Positions 40,147-55,182 of a stretch of 64,000 nucleotides of DNA are shown one piece after another. A program made the translations under genes and the position numbers. A model generated the notes under the pieces. The model saw nothing but the letters and a program-made list of their open reading frames with translations. It was not told the DNA's origin and did not search any database. The stretch comes from Patescibacteria group bacterium (GTDB lineage Bacteria > Patescibacteriota > Patescibacteriia > UBA1558 > GWA2-36-10): the NCBI GenBank assembly GCA_018819405.1, contig JAHJQF010000001.1, positions 907,377 to 971,376 of the forward strand. The letters are read 5' to 3'. Position 1 is the stretch's first letter, and each line of letters starts with the position of its first letter.

Positions 40147-41334
40147 TTACTTTAAAATTTTGGTTACTACAGCAGCACCAACAGTACGTCCGCCTTCGCG
40201 GATAGCAAACTTGGATTTTTCTTCCAAAGCTACTGGAGCTATCAATTTGATCTTCAAATTGATAGTATCTCCTGGCATAACCATCTCAGTACCTTCTGGT
40301 AATTCAACTTCACCGGTTACATCAGTAGTACGGATATAAAACTGTGGCTTGTATCCTTTGAAAAATGGAGTGTGACGTCCACCTTCTTCTTTACTCAAGA
40401 TATAAGCTTCAGCTTCAAATTCAGTGTGAGGAGTGATAGAACCTGGTTTGGCCAAAACTTGTCCACGTTGTATTTCATCTTTTTTGGTACCACGTAACAA
40501 AATTCCAGCATTGTCTCCTGCCCTACCTTCTTCCAACTGCTTATTAAACATCTCAATACCAGTAACAACAGTCTTGCTAGTGTCTTGTAGACCGACCATT
40601 TCAACTTCGTCATTTAGTTTGACAACTCCTCTTTCAATACGTCCGGTAACTACAGTACCACGACCTTCAATTGAAAAGATGTCTTCAATAGGCATTAAGA
40701 ATGCGTGTTCAGTATCACGTTTTGGTTCTGGGATATACTCATCCAAAGATTTGATCAAATCCAAAATTGGTTTTGAATCATCACCTGATGGATTTTCCAA
40801 GGCTTTCAAAGCGGTACCTCTGATAATTGGAGTTTCATCGCCTGGGAATTCATATTTCTTTAACAAATCTCTAATTTCTTCCTCAACTAGATCTACGAGT
40901 TCTGGATCATCAACTTGGTCCATTTTGTTCAAAAATACAACAATGTATGGGACACCAACCTGACGAGCAAGTAAAATATGTTCTCTAGTCTGAGGCATTG
41001 GACCATCAGCAGCTGATACTACCAAAATAGCACCATCCATCTGAGCGGCACCAGTAATCATGTTTTTGACATAGTCAGCGTGACCTGGACAGTCTACGTG
41101 AGCGTAATGTCTTTTTTCTGACTCATACTCAACATGAGCAGTGGCAATAGTAATACCACGTTCTCTTTCTTCAGGAGCATTATCAATCTGATCAACGTCC
41201 TTTTGCTGAGCAACACCACCATGAGCGGCTAATACCTTCAAAATGGCGGCAGTCAGGGTAGTTTTACCGTGGTCTACGTGACCAATAGTACCCACATTTA
41301 TGTGTGGCTTTTCTCTTTTAAAAGCTTCTGCCAT
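40147..41334 (-). CDS. tuf: elongation factor Tu (start at [18 protein letters not shown]-track start is an upstream TTG)
   Basis: [11 protein letters not shown]-loop. Full EF-Tu. Confidence 0.9.
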
Positions 41335-41435
41335 TTTTATTCTTTCTCCTATGATAGCCCCCCGCAAAAATGTGGGGTTTGTGAGCCAGCTATCTTGATT
41401 AAAATTACTTAATTATCGTTATTTAAAACACACAG

Positions 41436-41464
41436 ATTATAGCACTGTTTTTTGATTTTGGCAA
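41436..41464 (-). promoter_or_regulatory. sigma70-type promoter TTGCCA-17-TATAAT for tuf
   Basis: Direct read on the minus strand. Confidence 0.6.
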
Positions 41465-41521
41465 GCCCCTAAGCGCAGTATATCTATTTTTTTGTTATAT
41501 TGACTAATATTAGCAAAAAAA

Positions 41522-41887
41522 CTAGTCAACTGGCTCTATATAATACCTATCATCATCACCCACTGCTGACTTATCAACAGTAGTTTTGTCATCAGTATTT
41601 TCTGGCTTTTTTTCATCCTTTCTTAGAGTGTCCACACGGAAATTTTCCAGGCTATAGTCATCTAAGTGCTCTTGAGAAGCTTTCCAGACGGCAATGTCAC
41701 GATTTATCTTGTCCAAAAGCTCGTCTTCAGACAATCCTTTGACTGATGACGGACCAGCCAACAAAGCCTCATATTCTTTGACGGTCATGATTACATAGGG
41801 TTCATGGTTGTCTGACAAAACAATAACTTTGTCACCGGTTTTGGCCGCTAGTTCCAAAACTTTGTCTATTTGTTTGTAATTTGGCAT
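41522..41887 (-). CDS. hypothetical protein, N-terminal Phd/YefM-antitoxin-like fold, acidic C-terminus
   Basis: KVIVLSDNHEPYVIMTVKEYEALL resembles the YefM/Phd N-domain. Weak. Confidence 0.3.
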   Translation of the reverse strand: MPNYKQIDKVLELAAKTGDKVIVLSDNHEPYVIMTVKEYEALLAGPSSVKGLSEDELLDKINRDIAVWKASQEHLDDYSLENFRVDTLRKDEKKPENTDDKTTVDKSAVGDDDRYYIEPVD

Positions 41888-41894
41888 ATATTTT

Positions 41895-41972
41895 CAGTTT
41901 AAAGTTTGAAAGTTATAAAATTTAAAGTCATTTTTTCTACTTTTTAACTTTGAACTTTTTAACTTTTTACTG
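41895..41972. repeat. AT-rich AAAGTTT/AACTTT repeat element. Family with 29808-29845 and 32108-32186
   Basis: Direct read. Confidence 0.6.
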
Positions 41973-42025
41973 ATTAAAGTGCTAGTATTTTATAGTAAAA
42001 TTAAGGCTTTTGTCAAATTTTAATC

Positions 42026-42067
42026 TAACCTTCGAGGTTAGATTTAACCTCGAAGGTTGCTTTTTTC
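42026..42067 (+). terminator. hairpin AACCTTCGAGGTT-n6-AACCTCGAAGGTT plus T-run. Insulates the promoter at 42070
   Basis: Near-identical to the secY terminator at 28472-28516. Confidence 0.65.
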
Positions 42068-42069
42068 TA

Positions 42070-42098
42070 TTGACAAAATAATAAATATGTGATATAAT
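42070..42098 (+). promoter_or_regulatory. consensus sigma70 promoter TTGACA-17-TATAAT
   Basis: Perfect hexamers and spacing. Confidence 0.7.
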
Positions 42099-42324
42099 AT
42101 TACATTACTATAAAAAGTTCTTTAAAAGTGGGATTTCCCAGGTACAAACTTGGAGGTTGGAGAGCAGATAAACTAGCTAGATTTTATTGGGTCTCTACTC
42201 AACAATTTCAGCCTAATTATCTGGTCTAAGCTGGCTTCGGCCAAAAGCTAGACATCTCTCCTCCAAATTTGTGCCTGGAAAAATACTCCTGGTACAGCTC
42301 AACCCATCCAAGGAAGGAAACGCC

Positions 42325-42471
42325 ATGTTGGTACTGGCTTACTGCCTCTGCAAGCAGGCTCCCCGAGCCGCGGCCAAGGTCTCCTACCTGATGCTCTGCA
42401 CCATGGTCGGCCCGACCCTGATTCTCCTGTCCGCCATGATCGCAGGGATGATCTACTCCCTGCACCTCTAA
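42325..42471 (+). CDS. 48-aa hydrophobic Cys-rich peptide (MLVLAYCLCKQAPRAAAKVSYLMLCTMVGPTLILLSAMIAGMIYSLHL) with strong SD AAGGAAGGAAA
   Basis: SD 6 nt upstream. One predicted TM helix. GC-rich codons. Confidence 0.4.
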   Translation: MLVLAYCLCKQAPRAAAKVSYLMLCTMVGPTLILLSAMIAGMIYSLHL

Positions 42472-42586
42472 AGATCTGAACACAACACCAACACCCGCCA
42501 GGATCCCACCTTTCAAAGACCTATCTCGAATAGGCCCCCTCCTAAGTCTATAAAAAATTATAGATTTGGGAGGGATATAATAAGGC

Positions 42587-42625
42587 CCGGTAATTATTTA
42601 CCGGTCTTTATTTTATTTTTAAAAA
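42587..42625 (+). terminator. intrinsic terminator CCGGTAA ttat TTACCGG plus long T-run
   Basis: Direct read. Confidence 0.75.
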
Positions 42626-42678
42626 AATATATAATAAAATTAGTTCTTTCCACCACCCACACCTGAGGAGGTGAAACC

Positions 42679-42879
42679 ATGCTGGGCATAAAACAAAAAC
42701 AATGTTTAATCGAAGGCCTGACAAGGCAAATCCGAGAAATTCGTATCAAAAAAATAACTAATCCAGTACAGATAGAAAAAATTATCCTGTACGCTATGCA
42801 AATGCGCCGAGAAAATATAATAAATGATTTCCAAGAAATCGGCACAACCAACGCTGAATTATTATCCTGGCTACCCTAA
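42679..42879 (+). CDS. 66-aa hypothetical protein with strong SD (GAGGAGGTGA)
   Basis: SD. Followed by the terminator at 42922-42962. Confidence 0.5.
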   Translation: MLGIKQKQCLIEGLTRQIREIRIKKITNPVQIEKIILYAMQMRRENIINDFQEIGTTNAELLSWLP

Positions 42880-42921
42880 GGAGAAAGGCCTAAACATGTT
42901 ACCAACAACCTAAAACCACCT

Positions 42922-42962
42922 ACTTCACGGAAGATTGGGTGGTTTTATATTTGAAGATATCT
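42922..42962 (+). terminator. intrinsic terminator AAAACCACC...GGTGGTTTT plus T-run
   Basis: Direct read. Confidence 0.7.
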
Positions 42963-42984
42963 TAAATAAAATAACTTTTATTAG

Positions 42985-43013
42985 TTGACAAAAACTATAC
43001 AATATACTATGAT
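42985..43013 (+). promoter_or_regulatory. sigma70 promoter TTGACA-17-TATGAT. Downstream near-palindrome TGTCAATTGATA in the leader
   Basis: Direct read. Confidence 0.6.
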
Positions 43014-43069
43014 AACTCTCTGTAATGTTCCCTGTCAATTGATAACCTCAGACTCAAAGGAGTGAGTTC

Positions 43070-43480
43070 ATGCCACTTGAATTTCAGCTTTTGTCACTGA
43101 TTGAGCTACGCCAATACGTGGCTCAGCTCAACGAAAATTCTCATCCCGGGTTTGTGTTTCGTATCTTGGTACAGTGTCTGTGCCAGATAAAGGCCGGTGC
43201 TTGCTGGCCACAAATTGGCACGACCCAAGTCGACATGCAGACGCTGATGCGCGTCTGTCACAAAAACCAGGTGAGACGTGAACTTCAGGCCATCCTGGCC
43301 AAAAATGAGTACACACCGCTGAATTTTGATGACGCGGAAAAACTGAGCTGCATCATGGAGGAGATCCAGCAATGTCACATCAATTGGAATGATCTTCCTG
43401 TATCTGAGAATGTATTGAGACAAATCATCAATATGGCCGCTTGCGGCTATGAACACTGCAATCAGCAAAAAATGGCCTGA
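43070..43480 (+). CDS. 136-aa Cys-rich hypothetical protein (about 50% GC), SD AAGGAG
   Basis: Good RBS. Own promoter and terminator. No recognisable domain. Confidence 0.55.
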   Translation: MPLEFQLLSLIELRQYVAQLNENSHPGFVFRILVQCLCQIKAGACWPQIGTTQVDMQTLMRVCHKNQVRRELQAILAKNEYTPLNFDDAEKLSCIMEEIQQCHINWNDLPVSENVLRQIINMAACGYEHCNQQKMA

Positions 43481-43482
43481 GT

Positions 43483-43530
43483 CTCGCCCCGCCGAACGCT
43501 ATCAAGCGTGAGGCGGGGTTTCTTTTTTAT
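43483..43530 (+). terminator. intrinsic terminator CTCGCCCCGCC...GGCGGGGTTTCTTTTTTATTTT
   Basis: Direct read. Confidence 0.8.
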
Positions 43531-43689
43531 TTTAATTTTTGAGTAAAGACTTTTTGTAATACTTTTCAAAATTACTTTCAGCAAAAAAATCCCAGCCTCT
43601 TAGCCATATTTTTATTTTTCTTTTTAGCATAAACATATATTTTAATTAGCTATAATATACAACGAAAAAATAAAATAAAAGTAACAAAA

Positions 43690-43713
43690 AAGGAGCGGAC
43701 TGATGCCCGCTCC
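43690..43713 (-). terminator. terminator hairpin GGAGCGG..CCGCTCC plus T-run (minus strand) after cdd
   Basis: Direct read. Confidence 0.6.
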
Positions 43714-43724
43714 CGACCGAATCC

Positions 43725-44237
43725 TCACCTGAGGGTGAAAACATGAGGCAAAAGCACCCCGATACTTGCCCGAAAAACAAAGCCCTCGGTGTTGACCGAC
43801 AGAATCGGCACTCTATTGTCGCCGTTGCAGTGCTCGCTGATAATCTGACGACAATCGCCACATGATGTGACCATACTACTGACATTAATCTTGCCCAGAT
43901 CAATGTCTTTGGGTGTCAGATTGAACTCACGATCAGCAGTCGCACCAGCCAAAACCAACATCCTAATATTGAGTTGTCCGCTGACTACCATGGCCGCTAG
44001 AGCTGAACGCTCGGCATGAGTGACTTTGTAGTGGGCGTACTCCACATTGCATCCGTAAAAAACGACGTTACTCTGACTGACCAGAGCACAGCCCACCTTG
44101 AAACCGGAATACGGAGCATAGGCATTACGCCTAGCATTGATAGCCTGCTGAACCAGGCCACGCCCGTCTGCTGACGACATGTCAGAAAAATGGAAAATTT
44201 CCACATCCCCGACCCGATGAATCTTGCTTGCCTGCAT
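43725..44237 (-). CDS. cdd: cytidine deaminase (start at MQASKIHRV with SD GAGGAGG)
   Basis: NAYAPYSGFKVGCAL, GCNVEYAHY, HAERSAL, SCGDCRQII zinc-ligand motifs. About 50% GC. Confidence 0.8.
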   Translation of the reverse strand: MQASKIHRVGDVEIFHFSDMSSADGRGLVQQAINARRNAYAPYSGFKVGCALVSQSNVVFYGCNVEYAHYKVTHAERSALAAMVVSGQLNIRMLVLAGATADREFNLTPKDIDLGKINVSSMVTSCGDCRQIISEHCNGDNRVPILSVNTEGFVFRASIGVLLPHVFTLR

Positions 44238-44320
44238 GACTAGCCTCCTCGTTTGTGCCATATACCTCTGGACAGAACTAAACTGGCTATAAATTAGCAA
44301 TAAAATATTTTTCTGTCAAA

Positions 44321-44349
44321 CCGCGTTAGAAAAATTTTTTCTAACGCGG
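44321..44349. repeat. palindrome CCGCGTTAGAAAAA/TTTTTTCTAACGCGG (CCCGTTAGAAAT-family variant)
   Basis: Direct read. Confidence 0.7.
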
Positions 44350-44350
44350 T

Positions 44351-44405
44351 AAACAAAAAACCCAGTCCTTCCTGCCTACCGATAGGCAAAGCACGAAGAA
44401 CTGGG
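44351..44405 (-). terminator. fusA terminator (CCCAGTCCTTC...GAAGAACTGGG plus U-run on minus strand)
   Basis: Direct read. Confidence 0.7.
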
Positions 44406-44419
44406 TAAATTTATATAAT

Positions 44420-46513
44420 CTAATTTTTCTTAATTATCTCTTCAGCAACATTGTGAGGCACCTGAGCATATTTTTTGAACTCCATAGAATAACTAGCTCG
44501 TCCCTGAGTCATAGATCTTAGAGCGGTAGCATAACCAAACATCTCAGATAGTGGCACTTCGGCATCAATAACCTTGGCACCAGCTCTATCGCTCATTTCA
44601 TGAACCTGTCCTCTCTTGGAATTCAAATCACCAATCACATCGCCCATGTATTGTTCGGGAGTGACTACTTCTACCGCCATGACTGGCTCTAAAATAACCG
44701 GGGTAGCTTTTTTGAAAGCTTCTTTAAAAGCCATTGAACCAGCTACTTTAAAAGCAGCTTCAGAAGAGTCAACATCATGGTAACTTCCATCATAAACAGC
44801 TACTTTAACATCTTGTATTTGATAACCAGCCAATATTCCGTTGTCCATGGTTTCTTTGATACCTTTTTCAATAGCCGGAATATATTCTTTTGGAATAACG
44901 CCACCTTTGATTTCTTCTTCAAACTCAAATCCAGTACCTCTTTCAAGTGGTTCCAATCTCAACCAACAATGACCATACTGACCACGACCACCAGATTGTT
45001 TGATATATTTTCCTTCTGCCTCGGCAGTAGCCGTAATGGTTTCTTTGTAAGCGACTTGTGGGGCACCGACATTGGCCTCAACCGAAAACTCACGCTTCAT
45101 ACGATCCACAATAATATCCAAATGAAGCTCTCCCATACCACCAATAATAGTTTGATTTGTTTCTTCATCTGATCGGACAGTAAAGGTTGGGTCTTCTTCG
45201 GCTAATTTTGCCAGAGCCATACCCATCTTTTCTTGATCAGCTTTGGTTTTTGGTTCAACTGCCACATGAATAACTGGTTCTGGGAAATCCATACTTTCAA
45301 GGACTACTTCTCTTTTTTCATCACAAAGAGTCTGACCAGTAGTTGTATCTTTTAGGCCAACAACAGCTACGATATCACCAGTAAATATTTCAGATACTTC
45401 TTCACGAGAGTTGGCGTGCATTCTAAGAATTCTTCCAATCCTCTCTCTTTTCTCGGTATTGGCATTAAAAACATAAGAGCCGGATTTTAATGTACCAGAA
45501 TAAACTCTTACAAAAGTCAGTTTACCAACATAAGGATCAGTCGCCACTTTAAAAGCCAAACCTACAAAAGGATCCTCATCTTTAGCCAAGACCGTGATAT
45601 GATTTTCTTCATTTCTTGGTTCGTGTCCGACAATTTCTGGTACATCAAGTGGAGATGGTAAATACGCAACAATGGCATCTAGCAAAAACTGAACTCCTTT
45701 GTTTTTTAAAGCTGAACCGACAAAAACTGGCACAATCTTGTTGCCAATAACGGCCTGTCTCAAAACTTTTTTCAAATCTTCAATAGCTGGTTCTTCTCCG
45801 CCAAGATATTTTTCCATCAAGGCTTCATCGTTTTCTACAATCGCTTCAATAAGTTTTCCACGGAATTCTTCTACCTTATCTTTCATGTCAGCTGGTACTT
45901 CACGTTTTTCAAATTGTTTACCGTCTTCATCAAGATAATACCAAGCTTCTCTTTCTAAAAGATTGATAATGCCTTCAAAAGTTTCAGCTGCTCCAATTGG
46001 CAACTGCATTGGATGGGCAGATTTTGTCAATCTATCATGAATAGTTTTTAAATCATAATAAAAATCCGCACCCATTCTATCCATCTTGTTTACAAAGGCT
46101 AGGCGGGGCACATGATATTTGTCAGCCTGTCTCCAGACAGTCTCCGACTGTGGTTCTACTCCAGCTACTCCATCAAAAACAATCACACCACCATCAAGCA
46201 CGCGCAATGATCTTTCTACTTCTACAGTAAAATCTACGTGACCTGGGGTATCAATAATATTGATATTGGCTTTGTCACCACCCAACCAGTCAGGTAAATT
46301 CCAAAAACAAGTAGTCGCGGCAGAAGTAATGGTAATACCTCTTTCCTTTTCCTGTTCCATCCAATCCATTTCAGCTTGCCCTTCATGGACTTCACCGATT
46401 TTATGTTTTTTTCCTGTATAAAAAAGAATACGCTCCGTCACGGTAGTCTTACCAGCATCAATATGAGCAATAATTCCAATGTTTCTTATTTTTTCAAGTG
46501 GATGTCGAGGCAT
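44420..46513 (-). CDS. fusA: elongation factor G
   Basis: AHIDAGKTT, full-length EF-G. Confidence 0.95.
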
Positions 46514-46587
46514 AGTTTTGTTTACAACTTAGATTTTTTAAAAAATAAAAGGCGGCTAAAGCGCCTAATATTTAAATTAATAACTGT

Positions 46588-47052
46588 TTAGGCGAAGTGA
46601 GCAAAAGCTTTGTTTGATTCGGCCATACGTTGCACATCTTCACGTTTTTTCATAGCAGCACCCTCACCGCCGGCAGCAGCAATAAGCTCTTCACCTAAGC
46701 GGACAGCCATGGAAGCTCCTTTTCTAGCTTTGGCAGCTTCAATGAGCCAACGATGTGCTAAAGTCATTTTTCTATCGCCAGTCACTACTATTGGTACTTG
46801 ATAGTTAGCGCCACCAATACGCTTACCTTTTACTTCTAGGTTTGGGGAAATATTTCTAATAGCAGCATCATAAATAGCTATAGGGTCTTGTTTGGTTTTT
46901 TTTGATATATGTTCAAAAGCTCCATAAACTACTTTTTGAGCTGTGGTTTTTTTACCACGTTCCATGATCTTGTTTATCAGCTTGGCAATATCTAATCTCT
47001 GAAATTTTGGATCTGGATTGATAGGTCTTTTTGGTGCTGGTTTTCCTCTCAT
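46588..47052 (-). CDS. rpsG: 30S ribosomal protein S7
   Basis: Sequence. Confidence 0.9.
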   Translation of the reverse strand: MRGKPAPKRPINPDPKFQRLDIAKLINKIMERGKKTTAQKVVYGAFEHISKKTKQDPIAIYDAAIRNISPNLEVKGKRIGGANYQVPIVVTGDRKMTLAHRWLIEAAKARKGASMAVRLGEELIAAAGGEGAAMKKREDVQRMAESNKAFAHFA

Positions 47053-47083
47053 AATTTTATAATGATTTTATCAAAATATTAAT

Positions 47084-47512
47084 TTATTTTTTAGCTGCTC
47101 TTTCTCTTTTGGCGCCATAAATTGAGCGACCTTGCTTTCTATTGGCTACGCCCTGAGTATCAAAAATACCACGAACAATATGATAACGGACACCTGGCAA
47201 ATCTTTTACCCTACCGCCGCGAATCATAACAATACTGTGCTCCTGCAAATTGTGGCCTTCACCTGGAATATAAGCAGTCACTTCCATACCATTTGACAAT
47301 CTAACCCTGGCAATTTTTCGAAGAGCTGAGTTTGGTTTCTTAGGTGTTGTGGTAGTAACTTTTAAACATACTCCACGTTTAAAAGGAGAGCCTTGTGGCA
47401 TTTCTCTTTTTCTTCTTTTCAAACTATTTAAAACAGTTTTTAAAGCCGGGGTAGTGCCCTTGGCCTTTTGCTGTTTTCTAGGTTTTTTGATTAATTGATT
47501 TACTGTTGGCAT
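47084..47512 (-). CDS. rpsL: 30S ribosomal protein S12
   Basis: [14 protein letters not shown]. Confidence 0.95.
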
Positions 47513-47546
47513 ATTTAACTTAAAAAATAAAAAATACGACTGTTCT

Positions 47547-47576
47547 TCCCGCGTAGCGGGATCCCGCTACGCGGGA
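47547..47576. promoter_or_regulatory. perfect 30-bp GC palindrome TCCCGCGTAGCGGGA|TCCCGCTACGCGGGA in the rpsL leader, followed by a U-run on the mRNA strand (attenuator/terminator or operator)
   Basis: Direct read. Confidence 0.6.
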
Positions 47577-47638
47577 AAAGTCCCCAATAAAATAGCATAA
47601 AAAAATATATAAGTCAAGAATAATAGCCAAAATTAATA

Positions 47639-47681
47639 CCCCTCCCCCTTAGATTTTGTGAATCTTTGGAGGAGGGGCGGG
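47639..47681 (-). terminator. hairpin CCCCTCCCCC...GGAGGAGGGG after the GC-rich lipoprotein gene
   Basis: Direct read, one mismatch. Confidence 0.5.
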
Positions 47682-47706
47682 TTTCAGGCCCTAATGAGAG
47701 ACCTGA

Positions 47707-48360
47707 CTAGTCGATCAGGACGTAGTCGGTGATGTCGCCGTTGTAGACATCGCGGACCTTGATATTGTCCTCATCCCAGGCTCCGACAAAGGTCGGAGGC
47801 GTGCCGAACTGAGTGTTGTTGCGCACTTCAAACCAGGCGTACTCGCCGCGAGTAGTCCAGGTCGGGTAATCCCCTCCGATCTTGACGTGATCACCGAATG
47901 GCACACCATTCGATTCTCCCGTGTAGCCCCAAGGATAGCCCGGCTCAGTGCTGTAGACAGCCCCTAAACCACTGTCGACGAGAGTCCAGCCATTGACATC
48001 GCTGGTGGTCACGGTGAAAGGTAGCTGGTAGCCCCGAGCTTCGCCAGAAGGATAGACCTTCTGGTAAAACATCACTGCCCAGTAGCCAGTGGCGTAACCG
48101 TAGGGCGAACGGGAGCGAGTCAGAATGATTGTGTCAGGATCGGCAGTTTTCAGAACGGACTGAATACCCTGCCAGGTCGAACTGTCCTCCGCACTCCGAG
48201 AGGCCACGTTCATGACATCCTCGAAGCCGCCGCTCTGGTTGGTCGCGTTGACCTGATCGACGATCGAGGTCTCCGGAGCCGTGGTCTGGTCCATGTTGCT
48301 GCAGCCGGTCAGCCAGGCGAGGCAAACCAGCATTAAAGTGATTGCGATGATTCGCTTCAT
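47707..48360 (-). CDS. GC-rich (about 58%) lipoprotein (lipobox LTGCS), unknown function
   Basis: Signal peptide MKRIIAITLMLVCLAWLTGCSN. Protein-like composition. GC content strongly atypical for the genome. Confidence 0.6.
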   Translation of the reverse strand: MKRIIAITLMLVCLAWLTGCSNMDQTTAPETSIVDQVNATNQSGGFEDVMNVASRSAEDSSTWQGIQSVLKTADPDTIILTRSRSPYGYATGYWAVMFYQKVYPSGEARGYQLPFTVTTSDVNGWTLVDSGLGAVYSTEPGYPWGYTGESNGVPFGDHVKIGGDYPTWTTRGEYAWFEVRNNTQFGTPPTFVGAWDEDNIKVRDVYNGDITDYVLID

Positions 48361-48640
48361 GGTTAGACTTCTCCTTGTCTCAGATACAATAGTTTTGCCT
48401 CATTGAGGCGCTTCGAAAAACTGCAGGTGTGAATACACTGCTGTTCATGCTCTTACGGGTAGCGCAACCCCCCTTAACGCTTTTTAACTCCTTTACAAGG
48501 CAAATCAATTTCCATGTTCAAGGCAAGTTGTCGAGCAAAAGTTGCGTGAAATCTATAAATTAATCCTGTGACCAGGAAAAAATGCAACGAACTTTTACAA
48601 ACAATTATAAAAAATACACTAAAAATAAATTCTTGTCAAT

Positions 48641-48673
48641 AAAAAGAGCCCCCGCAGCATAAGCCGTGGGGGC
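48641..48673 (-). terminator. GC hairpin terminator (GCCCCCGCAGC...GCCGTGGGGGC plus U-run)
   Basis: Direct read. Confidence 0.6.
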
Positions 48674-48716
48674 CTGTCGATCACTCTACGACCACGTGAG
48701 GCCAATGCGGCCTGGG

Positions 48717-48827
48717 TCAGGCGATCGTCACCTCGCTCGCCGTCGTCTTCTTGACGGTCTTCTTCTTGGTAGCCTTCTTGGCGACCATCTTCATCTGCAT
48801 CTGGACACTGGGTCTTCGTCGATTCAT
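48717..48827 (-). CDS. 36-aa lysine-rich peptide MNRRRPSVQMQMKMVAKKATKKKTVKKTTASEVTIA with SD AAGGAGGA
   Basis: Strong SD 8 nt upstream. Flanked by terminators on both sides. The upstream 43 codons of the track ORF are AT-rich non-coding-like. Confidence 0.45.
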   Translation of the reverse strand: MNRRRPSVQMQMKMVAKKATKKKTVKKTTASEVTIA

Positions 48828-48929
48828 ATTGGGAATCCTCCTTATGGTATCACAATGACAGACAAATGTGCTGACTATGATAGCCAGCACGCGAGTATAT
48901 TTATAATAACATAAGCAAAAAAAACAAAC

Positions 48930-49006
48930 AATAAAAAAGAGCCCCCGCGGAAGCACCTCACTGGGCGCGATACTGAGATCGCGTGCAGAGGGTGCCCCGC
49001 GGGGGC
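48930..49006 (-). terminator. compound GC hairpin terminator (GCCCCCGCGG...CCGCGGGGGC) plus U-run
   Basis: Direct read. Confidence 0.6.
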
Positions 49007-49082
49007 CAGCAGCCTGATTGGCCAGCTTGGCGATGGGCGTATAGCCCGTGAAGACGCTGGCGACAGGCCGAAGCGCGTCACC

Positions 49083-49175
49083 TTACTGGGTCTCCAGCCC
49101 AGGGGTGACAGGCGTGGTCATCGGAGGCGCGTCGGACGCCTCGGCAGGAACATCGGGCAGGGTCCAGAAGAGCAT
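49083..49175 (-). CDS. 30-aa peptide MLFWTLPDVPAEASDAPPMTTPVTPGLETQ (SD GGAAAGGAG). Start overlaps the upstream stop (ATGATG)
   Basis: Paralogous N-terminus to 49175..49330. Confidence 0.3.
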   Translation of the reverse strand: MLFWTLPDVPAEASDAPPMTTPVTPGLETQ

Positions 49176-49330
49176 CATCGCTCCTTTCCGGCAACTGCCG
49201 AAGGTTGTCTGTAGCGCTCGGTCCATACGCCGGCCTCAACGGCGCGGTACCACCTGTGGCACGAACTGTTTCCGACGAGCTTAGTCGCCGGGTTCGCACC
49301 CGAATCGTCGGGAAGGAGCCAGTAGAGCAC
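49175..49330 (-). CDS. 51-aa peptide (GTG start) VLYWLLPDDSGANPATKLVG... (SD GAAAGGAG)
   Basis: DNA around the start about 80% identical to the next ORF start. The SD region is also palindromic, so it may be RNA structure instead. Confidence 0.25.
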   Translation of the reverse strand: MLYWLLPDDSGANPATKLVGNSSCHRWYRAVEAGVWTERYRQPSAVAGKER

Positions 49331-49415
49331 TGCTTCTCCTTTCGACTGGTTGTGTAGCTCCGAAGTGGAGCTACATGGTGCGGCTAGCTAGCCGCCGGGG
49401 CGCTGGCGCCCAGGT

Positions 49416-49523
49416 CTAGCTGCCGCGCCGCCGGCCGCGGACGTCGGTCGTGGAGGTGTTGCCCATGAGCACGAAATAGTTCGTGTAAGTGGCGACCGGA
49501 CGGCCGCGGATGTGGATCGACAT
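49416..49523 (-). CDS. 35-aa peptide MSIHIRGRPVATYTNYFVLMGNTSTTDVRGRRRGS (SD GGGAGGA). Member of the M-x-I-R-x-R-G-R-P short-ORF family
   Basis: SD 6 nt upstream. DNA about 80% identical over the first 10 codons to 54092..54136. Confidence 0.4.
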   Translation of the reverse strand: MSIHIRGRPVATYTNYFVLMGNTSTTDVRGRRRGS

Positions 49524-49678
49524 TGGGATCCTCCCGTCGTTGCATCATGGCAGGTTTTGTCCAGACTAGCTGGACGCTACATCCCACTTGGGGATACCAT
49601 TTTCCGTTGCTTAGACTTGTTGCGTATTCACTAGGAAATGATCGGGCGACTAAAAATATTTTTTAATCACGATTTTGT

Positions 49679-49706
49679 ATTATAGCACAAATAAAAAATT
49701 TGTCAA
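49679..49706 (-). promoter_or_regulatory. sigma70 promoter TTGACA-16-TATAAT whose -35 is embedded in the palindrome TTTGTCA-n8-TGACAAA (49699-49720)
   Basis: Direct read on the minus strand. Confidence 0.65.
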
Positions 49707-49739
49707 GAGCCCCTGACAAACCTTTTAAAAATACCAAAA

Positions 49740-50378
49740 ATGGGTATTTTATATAAATCTAGAAATAAAATTGATAAAAAAGTCAAAAATATGCCCAAAA
49801 ATATTAATGTTCATAAAATTATCCAAAATTATCAAAACTATCAATATCCAAGGCCCATTTATAGTAAATTTACGCTTAAATTCGTCAAAATGAGCTGGCA
49901 AAAAGGCAAAAAGCACTTTGGAGCCATCAAGTGGTGGAATAGGTATAAGATTAAAAACTCCCAATATAAGATTGACTAATATCAAATAAAACAAAAATAT
50001 AAAAACTAGATTATCAATAGGCAAAAACTTGAGCAAAAAATTAGCAATTATTATAAATAAAGCTACATTAATAAAGTTGGAAAGCGGACCAGCCAGTGAC
50101 ACAAAAGCATCTCCCCAACGACGCCAACGAAGATTATAAGTATTGACCGGTACTGGTTTGCCCCAACCAAAACCGGCGAAAAGGAGCATCAAGGTACCCA
50201 AAAACTCCATATGAGCCAAAGGATTGAGAGTCAAACGACCATTTTGACTAGGGGTATTGTCTCCCAAATAATGAGCCGCCAAAGCATGAGCAAACTCATG
50301 AATAGTTAAAGCATATATAATAGATAAAATAACTATTAAAAATATTTTTGGATCGCTAAATAATGTGGAAATTAACAT
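49740..50378 (-). CDS. M50-family site-2 protease (HEFAH zinc motif), AT-rich native gene
   Basis: HEFAHALAAH. Multi-TM. Confidence 0.7.
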
Positions 50379-50467
50379 ATATTATTGACAAAATTATAAA
50401 TTGATGGTAGCATAATCAAAGCTTAATAATAGTATTATAGCCTAATTAACATAGAAATTCAAAGTAT

Positions 50468-50659
50468 ATGGCCAAAGTATGTGAAATTTGTAATAGAGGT
50501 AAACTAAGTGCTAATACCCGCAGTCATTCCAATATTGCTAGCAAGAGAACCATGAAGCTGAATTTGCAATCCAAAAAAATTGGCAACAGCAAAATGACTG
50601 TTTGCACTTCTTGTTTGAAAACTCTAAACAAACTTAGAAAAAATCAAACTATAAAATAA
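50468..50659 (+). CDS. rpmB: 50S ribosomal protein L28
   Basis: MAKVCEICNRGKLSANTRSHSNIASKR. Confidence 0.85.
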   Translation: MAKVCEICNRGKLSANTRSHSNIASKRTMKLNLQSKKIGNSKMTVCTSCLKTLNKLRKNQTIK

Positions 50660-50673
50660 ATTATTTTTTTCAA

Positions 50674-50712
50674 CCGTCCCCTCATAGCAGGGGGCGGTTT
50701 TTTAATTTTTTG
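50674..50712 (+). terminator. rpmB terminator (CCGTCCCC..GGGGCGG plus T-run)
   Basis: Direct read. Confidence 0.7.
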
Positions 50713-50765
50713 AATAAAAATAAAGCGGGCGCCTGATGACATACATGATGCAAAAGTGGCGCCCG
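50712..50765 (-). terminator. terminator of the GC-rich gene (GCGGGCGCC...GGCGCCCG plus U-run)
   Basis: Direct read. Confidence 0.6.
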
Positions 50766-50785
50766 GAAAAGGGTCTTGGGCCAAA

Positions 50786-51085
50786 CTACCTGCTACTAGC
50801 GCAGGCCATGACGATCTTCTTGATCAGTCTCCTGACAGGGTGAGCCCTGATCAGCTCATCGCCGATGATCTGGTAGTGTCTTCCCTCACCATGAGGATCG
50901 AGATAGACCAGACGGGTCCGCGTATCCCAGATGGGCCAAGGTTGGCCTGCTCTGCGCAGACGACCGGTCGAGACATAGTCTCTTCCATCATAGCTCTGCT
51001 CTTCCACCAGTTCAACCGATGAAAAATTGTTGGGAAAAGGCACCCAACGGCGTCCGTCAATCGTCGCCCCAGCTTGTTTCGACAC
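50786..51085 (-). CDS. GC-rich (about 55%) hypothetical protein, about 100 aa, GTG start with SD GGAGG
   Basis: SD plus GTG. Own terminator. No recognisable domain. Confidence 0.4.
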   Translation of the reverse strand: MSKQAGATIDGRRWVPFPNNFSSVELVEEQSYDGRDYVSTGRLRRAGQPWPIWDTRTRLVYLDPHGEGRHYQIIGDELIRAHPVRRLIKKIVMACASSR

Positions 51086-51486
51086 AAGTAACCTCCAGTG
51101 TTTGTTTGGGCCAATATATGTGGCTGATAAAGCCACGGGATGAACAAAATATATTTTACAATACCACTCTTTGCAATTTTGGTCAATTATAAAAACCCCT
51201 GGCCTAAACTCGGGGTAAAAACAAAAAGGCGTTGTTATAGTTTGAAAAACTAATAAAACACCTTTTTGCTAGCCATTTTGTTGCATGAATTTGTGCCTTA
51301 GTAATTAATGACTATTGTAGCTTTGCTTTTTTATATGTATAACCCCTTTGTAAAAGGGTGGTGCTCGCAGACTAAAGGCCCCAGCCCAAGACAATATAAA
51401 GCACCAAGGCAATAATGTTGTAGAGTTACATATGTTAAAAAGAAGCTACATTTATAATATAACATCTTTTAAAAATCATTGCAAAA

Positions 51487-51513
51487 CCCGTTAGAAATAT
51501 TATTTCTAACGGG
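51487..51513. repeat. perfect palindrome CCCGTTAGAAAT att ATTTCTAACGGG
   Basis: Direct read. Confidence 0.8.
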
Positions 51514-51521
51514 TCAAAAAC

Positions 51522-51551
51522 AAACCAAAAAAAGAGCTAGACTTAGCTCTT
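51522..51551 (-). terminator. ndk terminator (AGAGCTAgactTAGCTCT plus U-run)
   Basis: Direct read. Confidence 0.7.
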
Positions 51552-51584
51552 TTTAAATTGATTATTTTAAAACTCGTCGAGAGA

Positions 51585-52094
51585 TTATTTTTCCAACAGT
51601 GTATGCCTAGTATAATCAGGCTGATGATCACATAATTCAAAATCCTGAAACCAATAACTTATCTCCATCTTAGCTTCTTCTACGCTTGAAGAGGCGTGAA
51701 TGAGATTAAAAACTGCTTTGTTGCTTTTGTCAGCATGAGAAAAAGACAAGTGAGCATAATCACCTCTGATAGTACCTGGAGCCGCACTTTTTGGCTCAGT
51801 CTCTCCGACCATCTTGCGTACAATGGTCACTGCCTCCACGCCTTCGATAGCAATGGCTACTACTGGTCCGGAAGTAATCATCTCCACCATCATATCTCTT
51901 ACTTTTTGTCCGCGTCTCTTTGCCAAATCTTCACTATAATGTTTGAGGGCAGTATCTTGATCAGACAGGACAAGTTTTAGTCCGGCAATTTTGAGTCCAG
52001 TTCTTTCAAAACGATGTAGTATTTCCCCTATCAAGCCTCTGTTGATAGCATCGGGTTTGAGTAATATTAAACTTCTTTCTAATTTATCATTCAT
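51585..52094 (-). CDS. ndk: nucleoside diphosphate kinase (C-terminally extended)
   Basis: LILLKPDAINRGLIGEIL... Confidence 0.85.
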   Translation of the reverse strand: MNDKLERSLILLKPDAINRGLIGEILHRFERTGLKIAGLKLVLSDQDTALKHYSEDLAKRRGQKVRDMMVEMITSGPVVAIAIEGVEAVTIVRKMVGETEPKSAAPGTIRGDYAHLSFSHADKSNKAVFNLIHASSSVEEAKMEISYWFQDFELCDHQPDYTRHTLLEK

Positions 52095-52115
52095 ATTTAC
52101 AAATTTATAAAATAA

Positions 52116-52496
52116 TTATTTAGCCATTTTCTTTTTAACTTCTGCCACTACTTCCGATGGGGTAATATTTGCCTTGACTAAATAGCCAACTGACCCCAAC
52201 TCTTTACCACGCTCAATATCCTCATCCTGCCCTAGGTTGGTCAACAACATTACAGGAATATCTTTGGTAGCGGCATCCTCCTTGAGAGATTTCAAAACTG
52301 AAAAACCATCCATCTTTGGCATAATAATATCAAGTAAAATAAAATCCGGATGAATAGTTTTGGCTTTTTCCAAACCGTCTGCTCCATCAAGAGCCTTGGT
52401 CAAATCAAAGCCTTCGTTGTTAAACTTTACTTCATACATATTGGCGAGCATTTCCTCGTCCTCAATAAGCAAAATTTTTGTTTTATTATCTGCCAT
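52116..52496 (-). CDS. single-domain response regulator (CheY-like receiver). Start at MADNKTKILLIEDEE
   Basis: DEEM...LDIIMPKMDG...K receiver residues. The upstream 41 codons of the track ORF run into GC-rich terminator hairpins. Confidence 0.75.
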   Translation of the reverse strand: MADNKTKILLIEDEEMLANMYEVKFNNEGFDLTKALDGADGLEKAKTIHPDFILLDIIMPKMDGFSVLKSLKEDAATKDIPVMLLTNLGQDEDIERGKELGSVGYLVKANITPSEVVAEVKKKMAK

Positions 52497-52560
52497 AACG
52501 CTTAAAAATTTAATGTTTATGCCTATATTATATGCTAAGTGAATATAAAAATCAAGGTAA

Positions 52561-52592
52561 TAAAAAGAGGGGGCAACGCACGCGCTGCCCCC
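52561..52592 (-). terminator. terminator GGGGGCAACGCACGCGCTGCCCCC plus U-run for the GC-rich lipoprotein gene
   Basis: Direct read. Confidence 0.65.
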
Positions 52593-52672
52593 TGGCGAGC
52601 GTCCCATCTTTGGGTTCAATTGGGGCAGTGTCTGCCCCTTTTATAGCTCGCTGAGACCCGCCGGTTTTGGTG

Positions 52673-53167
52673 TTAGGCCGCCATCAGGCGGCCAGGCCTA
52701 TTGCCGGGCGGGACGTCTTCCCTGCCGCCGTAATGGCCGAGGATGGAGCTCTTGTTCATCGTCACCTGGTAGTAGTCCCAGATGGCATCACCGGCCGAAG
52801 CCGACACACACAGTGCGCTCAGTGAGCTGGGAATCTTGATATATACCGGATCCAGATTGCTGACGACGCTGGAGCTCTTGTAGTAGAGCCCAACGGCATC
52901 ACCGGCCGAAGCCGCCACACACAGTGCGCTCATGTTACAGGACTCGTTGATCTTCTTCAGGACGACGGTCGTAGTGTTCGCCGTCGTGTCCATGTGATTG
53001 GCGATCGCCACGGCGATGTCCGTGCCGTCGGTGACCGCATACCACAGGTCGTTCTTCGCGTAACTGACCTGGCTGGCCATCGCGCCGCAAGCAAGCAGCA
53101 TGATGACGGCCACCAGAGCCAGAGCGGCGCCCATCATCAGACGCGAGGGTCCACGAATGTGATGCAT
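52673..53167 (-). CDS. GC-rich (about 62%) lipoprotein with internal duplicated motif SALCV(A/S)ASAGDA(V/I)..YY
   Basis: Signal peptide and lipobox ALALVAVIMLLACGAMA. SD GGGAGGAAG. Confidence 0.55.
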   Translation of the reverse strand: MHHIRGPSRLMMGAALALVAVIMLLACGAMASQVSYAKNDLWYAVTDGTDIAVAIANHMDTTANTTTVVLKKINESCNMSALCVAASAGDAVGLYYKSSSVVSNLDPVYIKIPSSLSALCVSASAGDAIWDYYQVTMNKSSILGHYGGREDVPPGNRPGRLMAA

Positions 53168-53409
53168 GTCTTCCTCCCTGAATGGGGACTAAAATGACTA
53201 CCTAAGGTAGCCGGCGAATGATACTCGGTTAAAAAACCTCCTTGGCTTTTGGTCTCACTATAATGAGTATACTTCCATAGGAAATATACTCGTGAAATTG
53301 TACAATACATATTTGAACATACAATATTTTGTAAATTCTGTCAATAACTATAAAAAATTCTACCCTGACCCAAGCTACTAAGTTTTATAGCTAATCTTCA
53401 TCACTTTTG

Positions 53410-53467
53410 GATAAAATCTATAAAAGAAAACCGGGCGAAACTCACTATGTGAAGCTTGTCTCGCCCG
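53410..53467 (-). terminator. cassette unit-1 terminator (CCGGGCGA..TCGCCCGG plus U-run)
   Basis: Direct read. Confidence 0.6.
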
Positions 53468-53661
53468 GTCAGGTGGTTGGCCCGAAGGCCACCGGATCGC
53501 TGTGCGATCATTTTTTGAGCCATTGGGCTCGAAGAAAAGAATATTGGGATTTTTGGAGATGGGCCTTGAGTCGCTTAAGTGCCCGGTCAGTTGGCCCGAT
53601 TACTCTGGCCGAGCTAAAGGTGGAATCGAAGCTTCATCGGCGACCTCGCTGGTCAGGCGGT

Positions 53662-53739
53662 TCATGCGGCCTTCGTGGCTGTACGGCGACGCAGCTCGGC
53701 GACGGTCTCCCTCGGGGGTCCAGTGTTTCGAATCTTCAT
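53662..53739 (-). CDS. 25-aa peptide MKIRNTGPPRETVAELRRRTATKAA (SD GGAAGGAG). Short-ORF family member
   Basis: SD 7 nt upstream. RBS region homologous to 49524-49545 and 54137-54160. Confidence 0.35.
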   Translation of the reverse strand: MKIRNTGPPRETVAELRRRTATKAA

Positions 53740-53876
53740 GATCAGACTCCTTCCTCGAGTCGCTTCAGAAAATTCCCGCCAAAATTAGCGGCATAGGAGA
53801 TGTGGCTCCTTCCAATATCGGCTGGGCTCCTGCCCTCCCCTATAGACCAACAGATCTAGCGAGAACGGCTGTTTTT

Positions 53877-53905
53877 ATGATACCAAGTGCCCTAAAATTA
53901 GTCAA
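53877..53905 (-). promoter_or_regulatory. sigma70 promoter TTGACT-17-TATCAT inside the conserved ATTGACTAATTT box
   Basis: Direct read. Confidence 0.55.
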
Positions 53906-53915
53906 TATAATAATC

Positions 53916-53969
53916 TAAACAAAAAAATACCGGACAAAACTCGCTCTTGGAGCTAAGTCTTGCCCGGCT
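53916..53969 (-). terminator. cassette unit-2 terminator (CCGGACAA..CTTGCCCGG plus U-run)
   Basis: Homologous to 53430-53467. Confidence 0.55.
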
Positions 53970-54091
53970 TGCATCGCTGTAGATAGTCTCACCTGACCCC
54001 AGGTAATATTCCCCTACGAGGGGATCGTGAGAGTTGACTGGTTCGTAAGCGAAGGTCATCCTCTCCAACTAACGCTGGGAACTTTAGGAAG

Positions 54092-54136
54092 TCAGGCGTT
54101 GTCCCCGATGGGACGTCCACGGATGCGGATAGCCAC
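54092..54136 (-). CDS. 14-aa peptide (GTG) MAIRIRGRPIGDNA (SD GAAAGGAG). Truncated paralog of 49416..49523
   Basis: 17/20-nt identity with the start of 49416..49523. Confidence 0.3.
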   Translation of the reverse strand: MAIRIRGRPIGDNA

Positions 54137-54204
54137 GATATGGCTCCTTTCGTCGAGTCACTTCATACGTCGTTCCCACCATTACTGGCAGGAGTGGCTC
54201 TCTT

Positions 54205-54233
54205 AAGATATCAATCGCTATTAAATTAGTCAA
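54205..54233 (-). promoter_or_regulatory. promoter TTGACT-17-TATCTT (ATTGACTAATTT box, second copy)
   Basis: Direct read. Confidence 0.4.
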
Positions 54234-54239
54234 TAAATT

Positions 54240-55037
54240 TTAAAAACTAAAACTAATAGTACCTAAGTCCTGAGTATTTTCTATTTCACACCCTACTTTT
54301 TTCAATCTTTCTATTGCTTCCTGATGCGGGTGGCCAAATTTATTGTCCAAGCCAGATTGAATAATACAAAATTCGGGCTGTACAGCCTGCAAAAACTCTA
54401 GTGATGAAGAATATTTACTACCATGATGGCCGACTTTTAGATACTGGGAATTTAAATCAAAACCACCGGACAATAACTTTTGTTCCCCTTCTATTGGCAA
54501 ATCTCCCATCAATAAAACATTTTTATCTTTATAGCTTAGTTTTATAACTACTGAGTTTTCATTGAAATCTTCATGCCAGTAGTCAGCTAAAAGAACCCTA
54601 AAATATAAATCATCGGAAAACATAAAACTCTCGCCTGCTTGTACAATTTGTGGTTGGATATTATTTTCTTGTAATTTTTGGGTAAAGATATTATACAAAA
54701 AATGATCGGGCTGGTGATTACTCACCAAAACATGTTTTACTTCGTACTTTTCTAAAAGCTCTACAAAACCCATCATATGATCATCATGCCAATGAGTAAT
54801 AATCAAATAATCAATCGTGTCCTCCCACCAAGGAAGTTTGTCGGCCATTTGGGACAAGAGCAGATTGTCCGGCCCGCCGTCTATCAAAATATTTTGACCA
54901 TCAGGAGTACGAATTAAAATTGCATCACCTTGCCCAACATCCAAAAAATTAATCGCTAGTTTATTTTCTATTCTATAAAAAGAAAAAAATAAAGCTGACA
55001 AAATTATTAGGGTTATAAAAAATATTGTTTTATTCAT
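54240..55037 (-). CDS. ComEC C-terminal metallo-beta-lactamase domain protein (separate ORF with N-terminal TM)
   Basis: THWHDDHMMG motif, GHHGSKYSS. Confidence 0.75.
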   Translation of the reverse strand: MNKTIFFITLIILSALFFSFYRIENKLAINFLDVGQGDAILIRTPDGQNILIDGGPDNLLLSQMADKLPWWEDTIDYLIITHWHDDHMMGFVELLEKYEVKHVLVSNHQPDHFLYNIFTQKLQENNIQPQIVQAGESFMFSDDLYFRVLLADYWHEDFNENSVVIKLSYKDKNVLLMGDLPIEGEQKLLSGGFDLNSQYLKVGHHGSKYSSSLEFLQAVQPEFCIIQSGLDNKFGHPHQEAIERLKKVGCEIENTQDLGTISFSF

Positions 55038-55069
55038 ATGTTTATATAAATTAACCCACTATACCAAAT

Positions 55070-55182
55070 TTATATTTGTCATCCTGAACTTGTTTCAGGA
55101 TCTCCGATTGGAGATGCCGAAATACCCGCCTGCCATGACTACTGTCAGGCATGTCGGGCAGGAATTCGGCATAACAAAAATA
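55070..55182. repeat. structured GC-richer element (TTTGTCATCC plus hairpin ATCCTGAActtgTTCAGGAT ...) immediately 3' of the second GIY-YIG gene
   Basis: Same architecture as 3679-3767. Confidence 0.5.

Follow-up and report, generated by a model that had tools for sequence, protein, structure and literature searches.

Moron-like, mostly GC-rich cassettes between core translation genes of an AT-rich Patescibacteria genome

Morons are pieces of extra DNA that lie between genes adjacent in relatives, deviate in GC content and carry their own promoter and terminator (PMC3594210). A second relevant system is the hotspot of horizontal gene transfer (HGT) that lacks mobile elements; such hotspots are over-represented in transformable bacteria, with recombination at the flanking core genes (Oliveira et al. 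2017, PMC5635113). Within Patescibacteria, HGT takes place mostly inside the phylum (PMC12455944). We describe here a locus that resembles each of these systems in part. It lies in a 64,000-nt stretch of a Patescibacteria group bacterium genome (assembly GCA_018819405.1, contig JAHJQF010000001.1, positions 907,377 to 971,376 of the forward strand), referred to below as the window, in which small and mostly GC-rich transcription units, here termed cassettes A to K, are interleaved with AT-rich housekeeping genes. Bacteria of the candidate phyla radiation (CPR) have minimal genomes and are thought to be partner-dependent, and their gain of surface and accessory functions is poorly known.

The window as a whole averages 36.4% GC. 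Taking as GC-rich any stretch of 200 nt or more in which 120-nt windows attain 50% GC, we detected nine segments, all between 42.2 and 54.2 kb and none elsewhere in the 64 kb: 42229-42554, 43090-43526, 43672-44281, 47621-48400, 48608-49653, 50712-51152, 52531-53249 and 53390-54226, together with a weak one (51723-51925, GC 0.478) within ndk. No GC-rich segment was found by the same criterion in ~14 kb more of the same genome beyond the window; the GC-rich units are confined to 12 kb of the ~78 kb sampled. Codon usage, measured as third-position GC content (GC3), gave the same picture. Native open reading frames (ORFs) of a greedy ORF map have a GC3 of 0.21-0.41 (median 0.29), whereas the inserted ORFs range from 0.54 to 0.92 (C and D, 0.55; H, 0.59; E, 0.71; I, 0.78; and, for the short ORFs, G2, 0.69; G3, 0.78; F, 0.81-0.83; A, 0.86; G1, 0.92). 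GC content is also elevated at the first and second codon positions (GC1 and GC2) of the cassettes, and the ratio of GARP to FYMINK amino acids is 1.0-2.6 in D, E, G1-G3, H and I compared with a native mean of 0.61. Predicted transcript bodies have a GC content of 0.47-0.61 in 10 of the 11 cassettes (B, 0.40); the promoter-bearing spacers, 1.6 kb in total, have one of 0.26. These data bear out the mosaic of GC-rich and AT-rich DNA reported in a first-pass annotation; the positions given there, and the housekeeping genes named as interleaved, are correct. The AT-rich genes in question are tuf, a Phd-like gene, fusA, rpsG, rpsL, an M50 peptidase gene, rpmB, ndk, a response regulator gene and an MBL-fold gene. 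The five GC blocks listed there are present, but resolve into about 11 units, of which B is not GC-rich.

Comparison with relatives supports the earlier view that the blocks are additions. The nearest species representatives are metagenome-assembled genomes (MAGs) labelled Komeilibacteria, Nomurabacteria and Falkowbacteria, with 50-70% identity in the M50 peptidase and at most 86% in fusA; a metagenome scan with the M50 peptidase revealed no relative closer than 64% identity. The backbone order (MBL, response regulator, ndk, rpmB, M50, rpsL, rpsG, fusA, phd-like) is kept in these relatives, and the differences lie in four gaps. The gap between MBL and response regulator spans 1743 nt here, where it holds K, J and I, compared with ~100 nt in all 11 relatives with both genes. 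The corresponding values are 2236 nt (G, F and E) against 93-3168 nt between M50 and rpsL, 2532 nt (D, C, B and A) against 28-4084 nt between fusA and phd-like, and 925 nt (H) against 75-8402 nt between ndk and rpmB. Since gap lengths vary so widely, the same few intervals serve as variable spots in many relatives. The cassettes are missing from most relatives, and in compact relatives their gaps measure only 28-110 nt. A sister contig (L006) retains the fusA-cdd stretch at 79% nucleotide identity to the window; it possesses the cytidine deaminase gene cdd (cassette D) and C, while A and B are absent.

Where the gaps of relatives are occupied, their content is often AT-rich and sometimes consists of GC3-outlier ORFans, for which Pfam gave nothing convincing, or of ORF-less promoter-to-terminator units. 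In the M50-rpsL gap, promoter-to-terminator units of moderately raised GC content were observed in three relatives (L011, 10830-11130 and 11130-11330; L010, 2750-3130; L009, 10640-10880). Most of these units have no convincing ORF, which hints at small RNAs; one of the L011 units codes for a 41-aa peptide with many Q, R and E residues.

Cassette D (43691..44318, minus strand) contains the 170-aa cdd ORF (43725-44237) and a terminator at 43714-43691, with only weak -35 and -10 sequences upstream. Its product was recognised as a cytidine deaminase (CDA) by PF00383 (7e-14) and also by PF08211. Alignment to the Bacillus subtilis CDA structure 1ux1 showed that the HAE and CGDC (CxxC) zinc/catalytic motifs are intact, in line with a CDA of the tetrameric class. 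It scores 93 bits against TIGR01354, below the cutoff of 113.65, because of an insertion of ~20 aa. Orthologues were identified at 84% (L006) and 69% (L007) identity, and a dN/dS of ~0.15 indicates purifying selection. Both cdd and the putative lipoprotein gene of cassette E are judged to be functional, cdd from this ratio and its intact motifs and E from its conservation at 49% identity in a sister lineage. Outside the sister lineages, the homologues of cdd found in a search of 5.8 billion proteins are at most 42% identical; three of these (P0006, P0007 and P0012; 38-42% identity) come from contigs with a GC content of 39-55%, beside Firmicutes-like neighbours (acetate kinase, DUF896 and UPF0122).

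When cdd substitutions were polarised with L007 as the outgroup, 22 GC-to-AT changes were counted at third positions against 8 AT-to-GC changes (33 against 15 overall). By our estimate, a parsimony artefact at the composition of cdd could inflate this ratio ~1.1-fold at most, and cdd therefore appears to be losing GC. Its GC3 nevertheless stays at 0.54-0.59 in three lineages. Synonymous divergence is lower in cdd than in the adjacent fusA, both in dS (0.59 against 1.42) and at four-fold sites (0.34 against 0.51). Vertical neutral amelioration of cdd since the split from L006 was considered and rejected: a rough calculation calibrated on fusA requires an impossible ancestral GC3 above 1. These values imply either that cdd was exchanged among lineages after the split or that its composition is partly constrained. 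Exchange would fit both the mostly intra-phylum HGT of Patescibacteria (PMC12455944) and the recombination reported at core genes that flank hotspots without mobile elements (PMC5635113). The lipoprotein gene of E and its orthologue are saturated at synonymous sites, with GC3 values of 0.72 and 0.50 over a background of ~0.3.

The cassettes carry signals consistent with expression as separate units. Sigma-70-type promoter matches at 9 or more of 12 consensus positions were identified in AT-rich spacers upstream of 8 of the 11 units; the matches of A (42070-42098) and G (49706-49679) are perfect, and those of B, D and F are weak. Promoter-like sites number 54, compared with 25 expected. Terminators consisting of a hairpin and a T-run are predicted downstream of most units, and GGAGG-type Shine-Dalgarno sites precede the start codon of all ORFs by 5-9 nt. 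The proposal that each GC block has its own promoter and terminator agrees with these predictions for most units, less so for the promoters of B, D and F. Nine of the 11 units are co-oriented with the backbone and insulated by terminators.

In the fusA to phd-like gap, cassette A (42070..42612, plus strand) comprises a promoter, a leader, a 48-aa ORF and terminator hairpins. The promoter has the form TTGACA-17-TATAAT with a TG extension. The leader of ~225 nt contains a long hairpin, and the transcript folds with a z-score of -4.1 relative to shuffled controls. The ORF (42325-42471) encodes a hydrophobic peptide and displays third-position periodicity. Considered as a candidate type I toxin-antitoxin system, A offers the hydrophobic peptide and the long leader hairpin, but for an antisense RNA only a weak promoter match (9/12, 42244-42216), and it has no known homologues. 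In cassette B (42640..42945, plus strand), a Shine-Dalgarno site precedes a 66-aa ORF (42679-42879) and a terminator follows; B has a GC content of 0.36, is the sole unit that is not GC-rich, and returned no family match. The possibility that B is a paralogue of C received no support from BLASTP. Cassette C (42985..43530, plus strand) consists of a promoter (42985-43013), a 136-aa ORF (43070-43480) and a terminator. Its product is helical and was assigned to no family. Aligned with its syntenic counterpart in L006 (2542-2958), the C protein shows just 29% identity, compared with the 84% of the adjacent, convergent cdd; C is evolving very fast beside the deaminase gene.

The gap between M50 and rpsL houses three cassettes on the minus strand. 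Cassette E (47638..48639) has a promoter (48639-48611), a leader of ~245 nt and an ORF (47707-48360) for a putative lipoprotein of 217 aa with the lipobox LTGC and, as read from the translation, the sequence MKRIIAITLMLVCLAWLTGC. Its orthologue (P0002, on L004) likewise adjoins the M50 gene. AlphaFold2 models of the two putative lipoproteins of the locus, E and I, reached a mean pLDDT of 38-39. Cassette F (48649..48900) contains a 36-aa ORF (48717-48827) with a Shine-Dalgarno site, encoding a basic, lysine-rich peptide, and a terminator hairpin near 48649-48676. Cassette G (48941..49706) is the GC-richest of all (0.61-0.66), and runs from its consensus promoter through a leader of ~150 nt to a terminator at 48954-48941. 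It includes three short ORFs, each with its own Shine-Dalgarno site: G1 (49416-49523, 35 aa), G2 (49175-49330, 51 aa) and G3 (49083-49178, 31 aa). Third-position periodicity favours translation of F, G1, G2 and G3, as it does of A. The products of G2 and G3 start alike (LYWLLPDD and MLFWTLPDV); the two ORFs may be a small pair of tandem paralogues in one transcript. Orthology of G with the cassette downstream of the L004 lipoprotein gene was judged weak and set aside, as the alignment covers only a consensus-like promoter and ~25 nt at the start codon. The single cassette between ndk and rpmB, H (50712..51186, minus strand), has a promoter (51186-51158) and a 99-aa ORF (50786-51085) that begins with GTG, followed by a hairpin and T-run; its product was assigned to no family.

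Cassettes I, J and K occupy the gap between MBL and response regulator, again on the minus strand. Cassette I (52568..53344) has a promoter at 53344-53316, a leader of ~140 nt and a terminator at 52593-52568, and its ORF (52673-53167) encodes a putative lipoprotein of 164 aa containing LLAC (...VIMLLACGAMA, as read from the translation). The ORF of I contains an internal direct repeat of 56 nt (52766-52821 and 52877-52932, 111 nt apart and 88% identical) encoding a repeated SALCV(S/A)ASAGDA motif. Cassette J (53431..53905) has a promoter at 53905-53877 and a structured transcript of ~450 nt (fold z-score -3.7) with a 25-aa ORF (53662-53739); its terminator, near 53431-53470, is similar to that of K. 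Cassette K (53925..54233) has a promoter at 54233-54205 and a highly structured transcript of ~280 nt (z-score -5.4), followed by a terminator; its ORF of 14 aa (54092-54136) reads VAIRIRGRPIGDNA. J and K have promoter, 5' module and terminator in common while their middle is not conserved, and comparison of the two identifies them as tandem paralogues, duplicated in place rather than captured separately. Like G, both contain only very short ORFs inside strongly structured transcripts. The starts of G1, I, J and K (49523, 53167, 53739 and 54136, minus strand) share ~14-20 nt including ATYCGYGGACSYCC, with a common N-terminal peptide M-x-I-R-(I)-R-G-(R/P)-(P/S). In 2.16 Mb of sequence (the window and 174 fetched loci) the start motif M-x-I-R-I-R-G-R-P was present in no other genome.

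Perfect palindromic, terminator-like hairpins recur in the window. They form two pairs (28475-28515 with 42027-42058, and 44320-44350 with 51486-51514), and a further one lies at 47546-47577; two copies have arms with AACCTTCGAGGTTA and two have arms with CCGCGTTAGAAA / CCCGTTAGAAA. All but that at 28475-28515 are located exactly at borders between backbone and cassettes (phd|A, fusA|D, ndk|H and rpsL|E). The 47546-47577 palindrome is also the break point of the two Logan contigs that begin at rpsL|E (see below).

A foreign origin is, in our judgement, the best reading of the cassettes and a moderately probable one, because of the insertion polymorphism, the GC-type amino acids, the excess of GC-to-AT changes in cdd and the absence from most relatives. 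In a genome with a GC3 of 0.29, nearly any outside DNA would look GC-rich. Several points weigh against this reading. Protein, IMG/VR, phage and plasmid searches found a donor for no cassette, so that the argument for foreign origin draws solely on composition and distribution. Neither an integrase or mobility domain nor a tRNA gene, att-like or attC-like repeats or flanking direct repeats were found at the locus; ARAGORN likewise detected neither tRNA nor tmRNA, and no block is accounted for by rRNA. In type the promoters are AT-rich like those of the recipient and therefore not obviously part of imported DNA, promoters and terminators alike are consensus matches, and that the cassettes are expressed is a prediction from sequence. 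The substitution count of cdd is small (30 third-position events), and selection on composition could explain its GC3 and slow dS as well as recent exchange does. A serious, though unlikely, alternative is that the cassettes are native lineage-specific genes or RNAs whose GC content is held by selection, for instance for structured transcripts or translational control, and which were never transferred. It would account for the orthologues of cdd, C and E that stay GC-raised in sister lineages, the lower dS of cdd than of neighbouring fusA, the stable predicted folds of A, J and K and the failure of searches to return donor homologues. Yet the substitutions of cdd are not at equilibrium, the shift extends beyond synonymous sites to GC2 and amino-acid composition, most relatives lack the cassettes, and all GC-rich units are clustered in 12 kb. 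AT-rich genomes have GC-rich rRNA and tRNA, and we also considered that structured non-coding RNA genes of this sort make up the ORF-poor blocks (G, J and K, with the leaders of A and E), whose short ORFs would be incidental. Their strongly negative folding z-scores, the ORF-less units of L010 and L011 and the conservation in J and K of everything except the middle are in keeping with this idea. We regard it as improbable: within the region, Rfam 15 had no match that passed the gathering threshold and, at E values of up to 5, none better than chance (a search of nine related loci found nothing), G1, F and A combine strong third-position GC periodicity (0.83-0.92) with good Shine-Dalgarno sites, and the idea leaves C, D, E, H and I, which are protein genes, unexplained.

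The first-pass annotation proposed that an episymbiont repeatedly and recently took up genes straight from a high-GC (actinobacterial) host. Its view of the blocks as added DNA of foreign-type composition is supported; this source is not, and is unlikely. Such capture would be compatible with the extreme GC3 of block G, with the order GC3 > GC1 > GC2 and GTG starts, with the restriction of I, F, G, H, J and K to this genome and with the comEC gene that adjoins the region. Actinobacterial or other high-GC homologues were, however, found for no protein. The only homologue of E among the 5.8 billion proteins is the syntenic copy of a sister lineage; I has none there, and H, searched exhaustively with HMMER against 1.8 billion representatives, returned only spurious weak matches on unrelated proteins without a common Pfam family. 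Phage and plasmid collections hold many actinobacterial records. No cassette matched IMG/VR, INPHARED phages or PLSDB plasmids, and the nearest outside relatives of cdd lie, as noted above, on 39-55% GC contigs with Firmicutes-like neighbours. The closest homologues of cdd, the 136-aa C protein and E are syntenic genes of similarly raised GC content in related low-GC CPR genomes, a finding that the first-pass annotation itself had named as refuting its model; these three cassettes are older than the split from the sister lineages, and J and K, as local duplicates, speak against repeated separate capture. Rather unlikely too is a reading in which the str/ribosomal-protein neighbourhood by comEC is a dedicated landing pad where GC-rich imports, possibly from a host, are repeatedly domesticated as promoter-terminator minigenes with a partly selection-held GC content and products used in episymbiosis. 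The minigenes may then encode surface lipoproteins, tiny peptides and structured RNAs for that interaction, and I, G1, J and K may be a locally expanding family with a shared 5' module and start motif. A mis-join could also look like the sharp composition jumps found every few hundred bases, and the first-pass annotation had asked whether the contig is chimeric; contaminating high-GC reads stitched into a CPR contig are a related possibility. Parts of the window are reproduced at 100% identity by a 7556-nt Logan contig (SRR6514730; 47548-55103, E through the MBL gene), a 1046-nt Logan contig (SRR10598174; 47548-48593) and a 5360-nt Logan contig that extends from the 3' end of tuf through fusA, with genes called for B, C and D and a 96-aa ORF called on the opposite strand across cassette A; more than 20 junctions are thereby confirmed in two sequencing runs. 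The same mosaic is present on a 1,035,872-nt ENA MEGAHIT contig (ERZ27247117 k141_591135) and on an 847,426-nt JGI contig. In other organisms from other samples, orthologous junctions place a GC-rich cdd after fusA (L006 and L007) and a GC-richer lipoprotein gene after M50 (L003-L005). The apparent promoter, Shine-Dalgarno site and terminator that bound each block are also in register with the AT-rich spacers. Chimerism is effectively excluded for practical purposes.

Returning to foreign origin as the preferred reading, we propose that about 11 small accessory transcription units were added at different times to four permissive intergenic gaps (fusA|phd-tuf, M50|rpsL, ndk|rpmB and MBL|response regulator) of an otherwise conserved and compact backbone. 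The DNA would have come from one or more GC-richer sources. It may have entered by ComEC-dependent uptake, and recombination, either illegitimate or guided by the flanks, may then have placed it after a native terminator and ahead of the following native promoter; insertion at such positions would leave the neighbouring operons undisturbed. After arrival, cdd, C and E would have reached sister CPR lineages by descent or by exchange, the cassettes would slowly be losing GC, and J/K were duplicated in place. The units are predicted to yield a cytidine deaminase that would act in nucleoside salvage and two putative lipoproteins, along with several peptides of 14-51 aa and structured RNAs.

The native genes into which the cassettes are set lie mostly on the minus strand. 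They are tuf (40147-41367) and the Phd/YefM-like gene (41522-41887, 121 aa), with a GC3 of 0.28-0.39; fusA, rpsG and rpsL (44420..47512), with a GC3 of 0.26-0.27 and an rpsL promoter region (47576-47625) conserved in relatives; the M50 peptidase gene (49749-50378); rpmB (50468-50659, plus strand); ndk (51585-52094); and the response regulator gene (52116-52496). The Phd/YefM-like gene is kept between fusA and tuf in at least 10 related loci (L006 and nine MAGs), and the classical str operon is therefore split in this clade. DNA-uptake genes adjoin the cassette region: comEC appears to be split (54240-56782, minus strand) into a channel ORF with DUF4131 and Competence domains (55466-56782), a GIY-YIG nuclease ORF (55183-55473, 96 aa) that overlaps the end of the comEC ORF, and a separate MBL-fold ORF (54240-55037, 265 aa).

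Two other features of the window were recorded. A mild rise in GC content at 15-18 kb is due to the odd amino-acid composition of a 1203-aa ORF (14572-18183, minus strand), which has no Pfam match, an unusual GC2 of 0.49 and a native GC3 of 0.28. A cobalamin riboswitch (62919-63050, minus strand) scored 35.5 bits, which exceeds the gathering score. It precedes a 172-aa ORF without a family match (62364-62882) and a 592-aa protein (60513-62291) with DUF4430 and a prenyltransferase-like toroid domain; the group is possibly an operon for B12 binding or uptake, here in a CPR genome.

The locus demonstrates at base-pair resolution that apparently self-sufficient single-gene units can pile up between core translation genes, beside comEC and without a recognisable mobile element. 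Should the pattern prove general, GC3 outliers would provide a cheap list of recently gained, probably interaction-related genes in AT-rich CPR genomes. Such mosaics are real, and tools for cleaning MAGs should not trim them as contamination. The points of most interest are the slow GC decay, which would bear on whether composition is under selection in CPR bacteria, and the apparent local expansion of a family of structured transcripts with tiny ORFs.

Phage morons of the HK97/HK022 type (PMC3594210) are among the known systems closest to the locus. Like these, the cassettes are extra DNA at sites where relatives have two neighbouring genes, their GC content is unlike that of their surroundings, and they have an apparent promoter (consensus matches, in 8 of 11 units) and terminator of their own, which would permit expression without disturbing the flanking operon. 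They differ in lying on a bacterial chromosome among translation genes rather than in a phage or prophage, and are therefore moron-like rather than morons; in being GC-richer than the host where morons are AT-richer; and in standing several side by side, with one pair duplicated. With the HGT hotspots of Oliveira et al. (PMC5635113) the locus has in common a variable content between core genes, the lack of an integrase or transposase, the presence of comEC and a cdd less diverged than the flanking core gene, as expected from recombinational exchange. It is unlike them in its single-gene units of 0.3-1 kb, its genome of ~1 Mb, its str/ribosomal-protein neighbourhood and its unusually strong contrast in composition. 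The islands and individually transferred genes described in Patescibacteria (PMC12455944) are likewise foreign DNA in a streamlined CPR genome, and the finding there that detectable exchange is mostly between Patescibacteria matches the presence of cdd, C and E in sister lineages; those islands are larger, with annotated functions, and no sub-kb mosaic of ORFan promoter-terminator units was described there.

The cassettes have the deviant composition and patchy distribution of a classical genomic island, but not its integrase or mobility gene, tRNA flank or direct repeats. Nor do they form an integron array, since they have apparent promoters, sit among housekeeping genes and are accompanied by neither attC-like repeats nor an integrase. 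The amelioration of horizontally acquired genes, reportedly set out by Lawrence and Ochman in 1997, is matched by the graded GC content of the cassettes (0.36 to 0.66) and the GC-to-AT excess of cdd; the decay is slower than the neutral calibration on fusA, and the model then requires either selection or later intra-clade exchange in addition. The cassettes are best described as moron-like cassettes in HGT hotspots without mobile elements.

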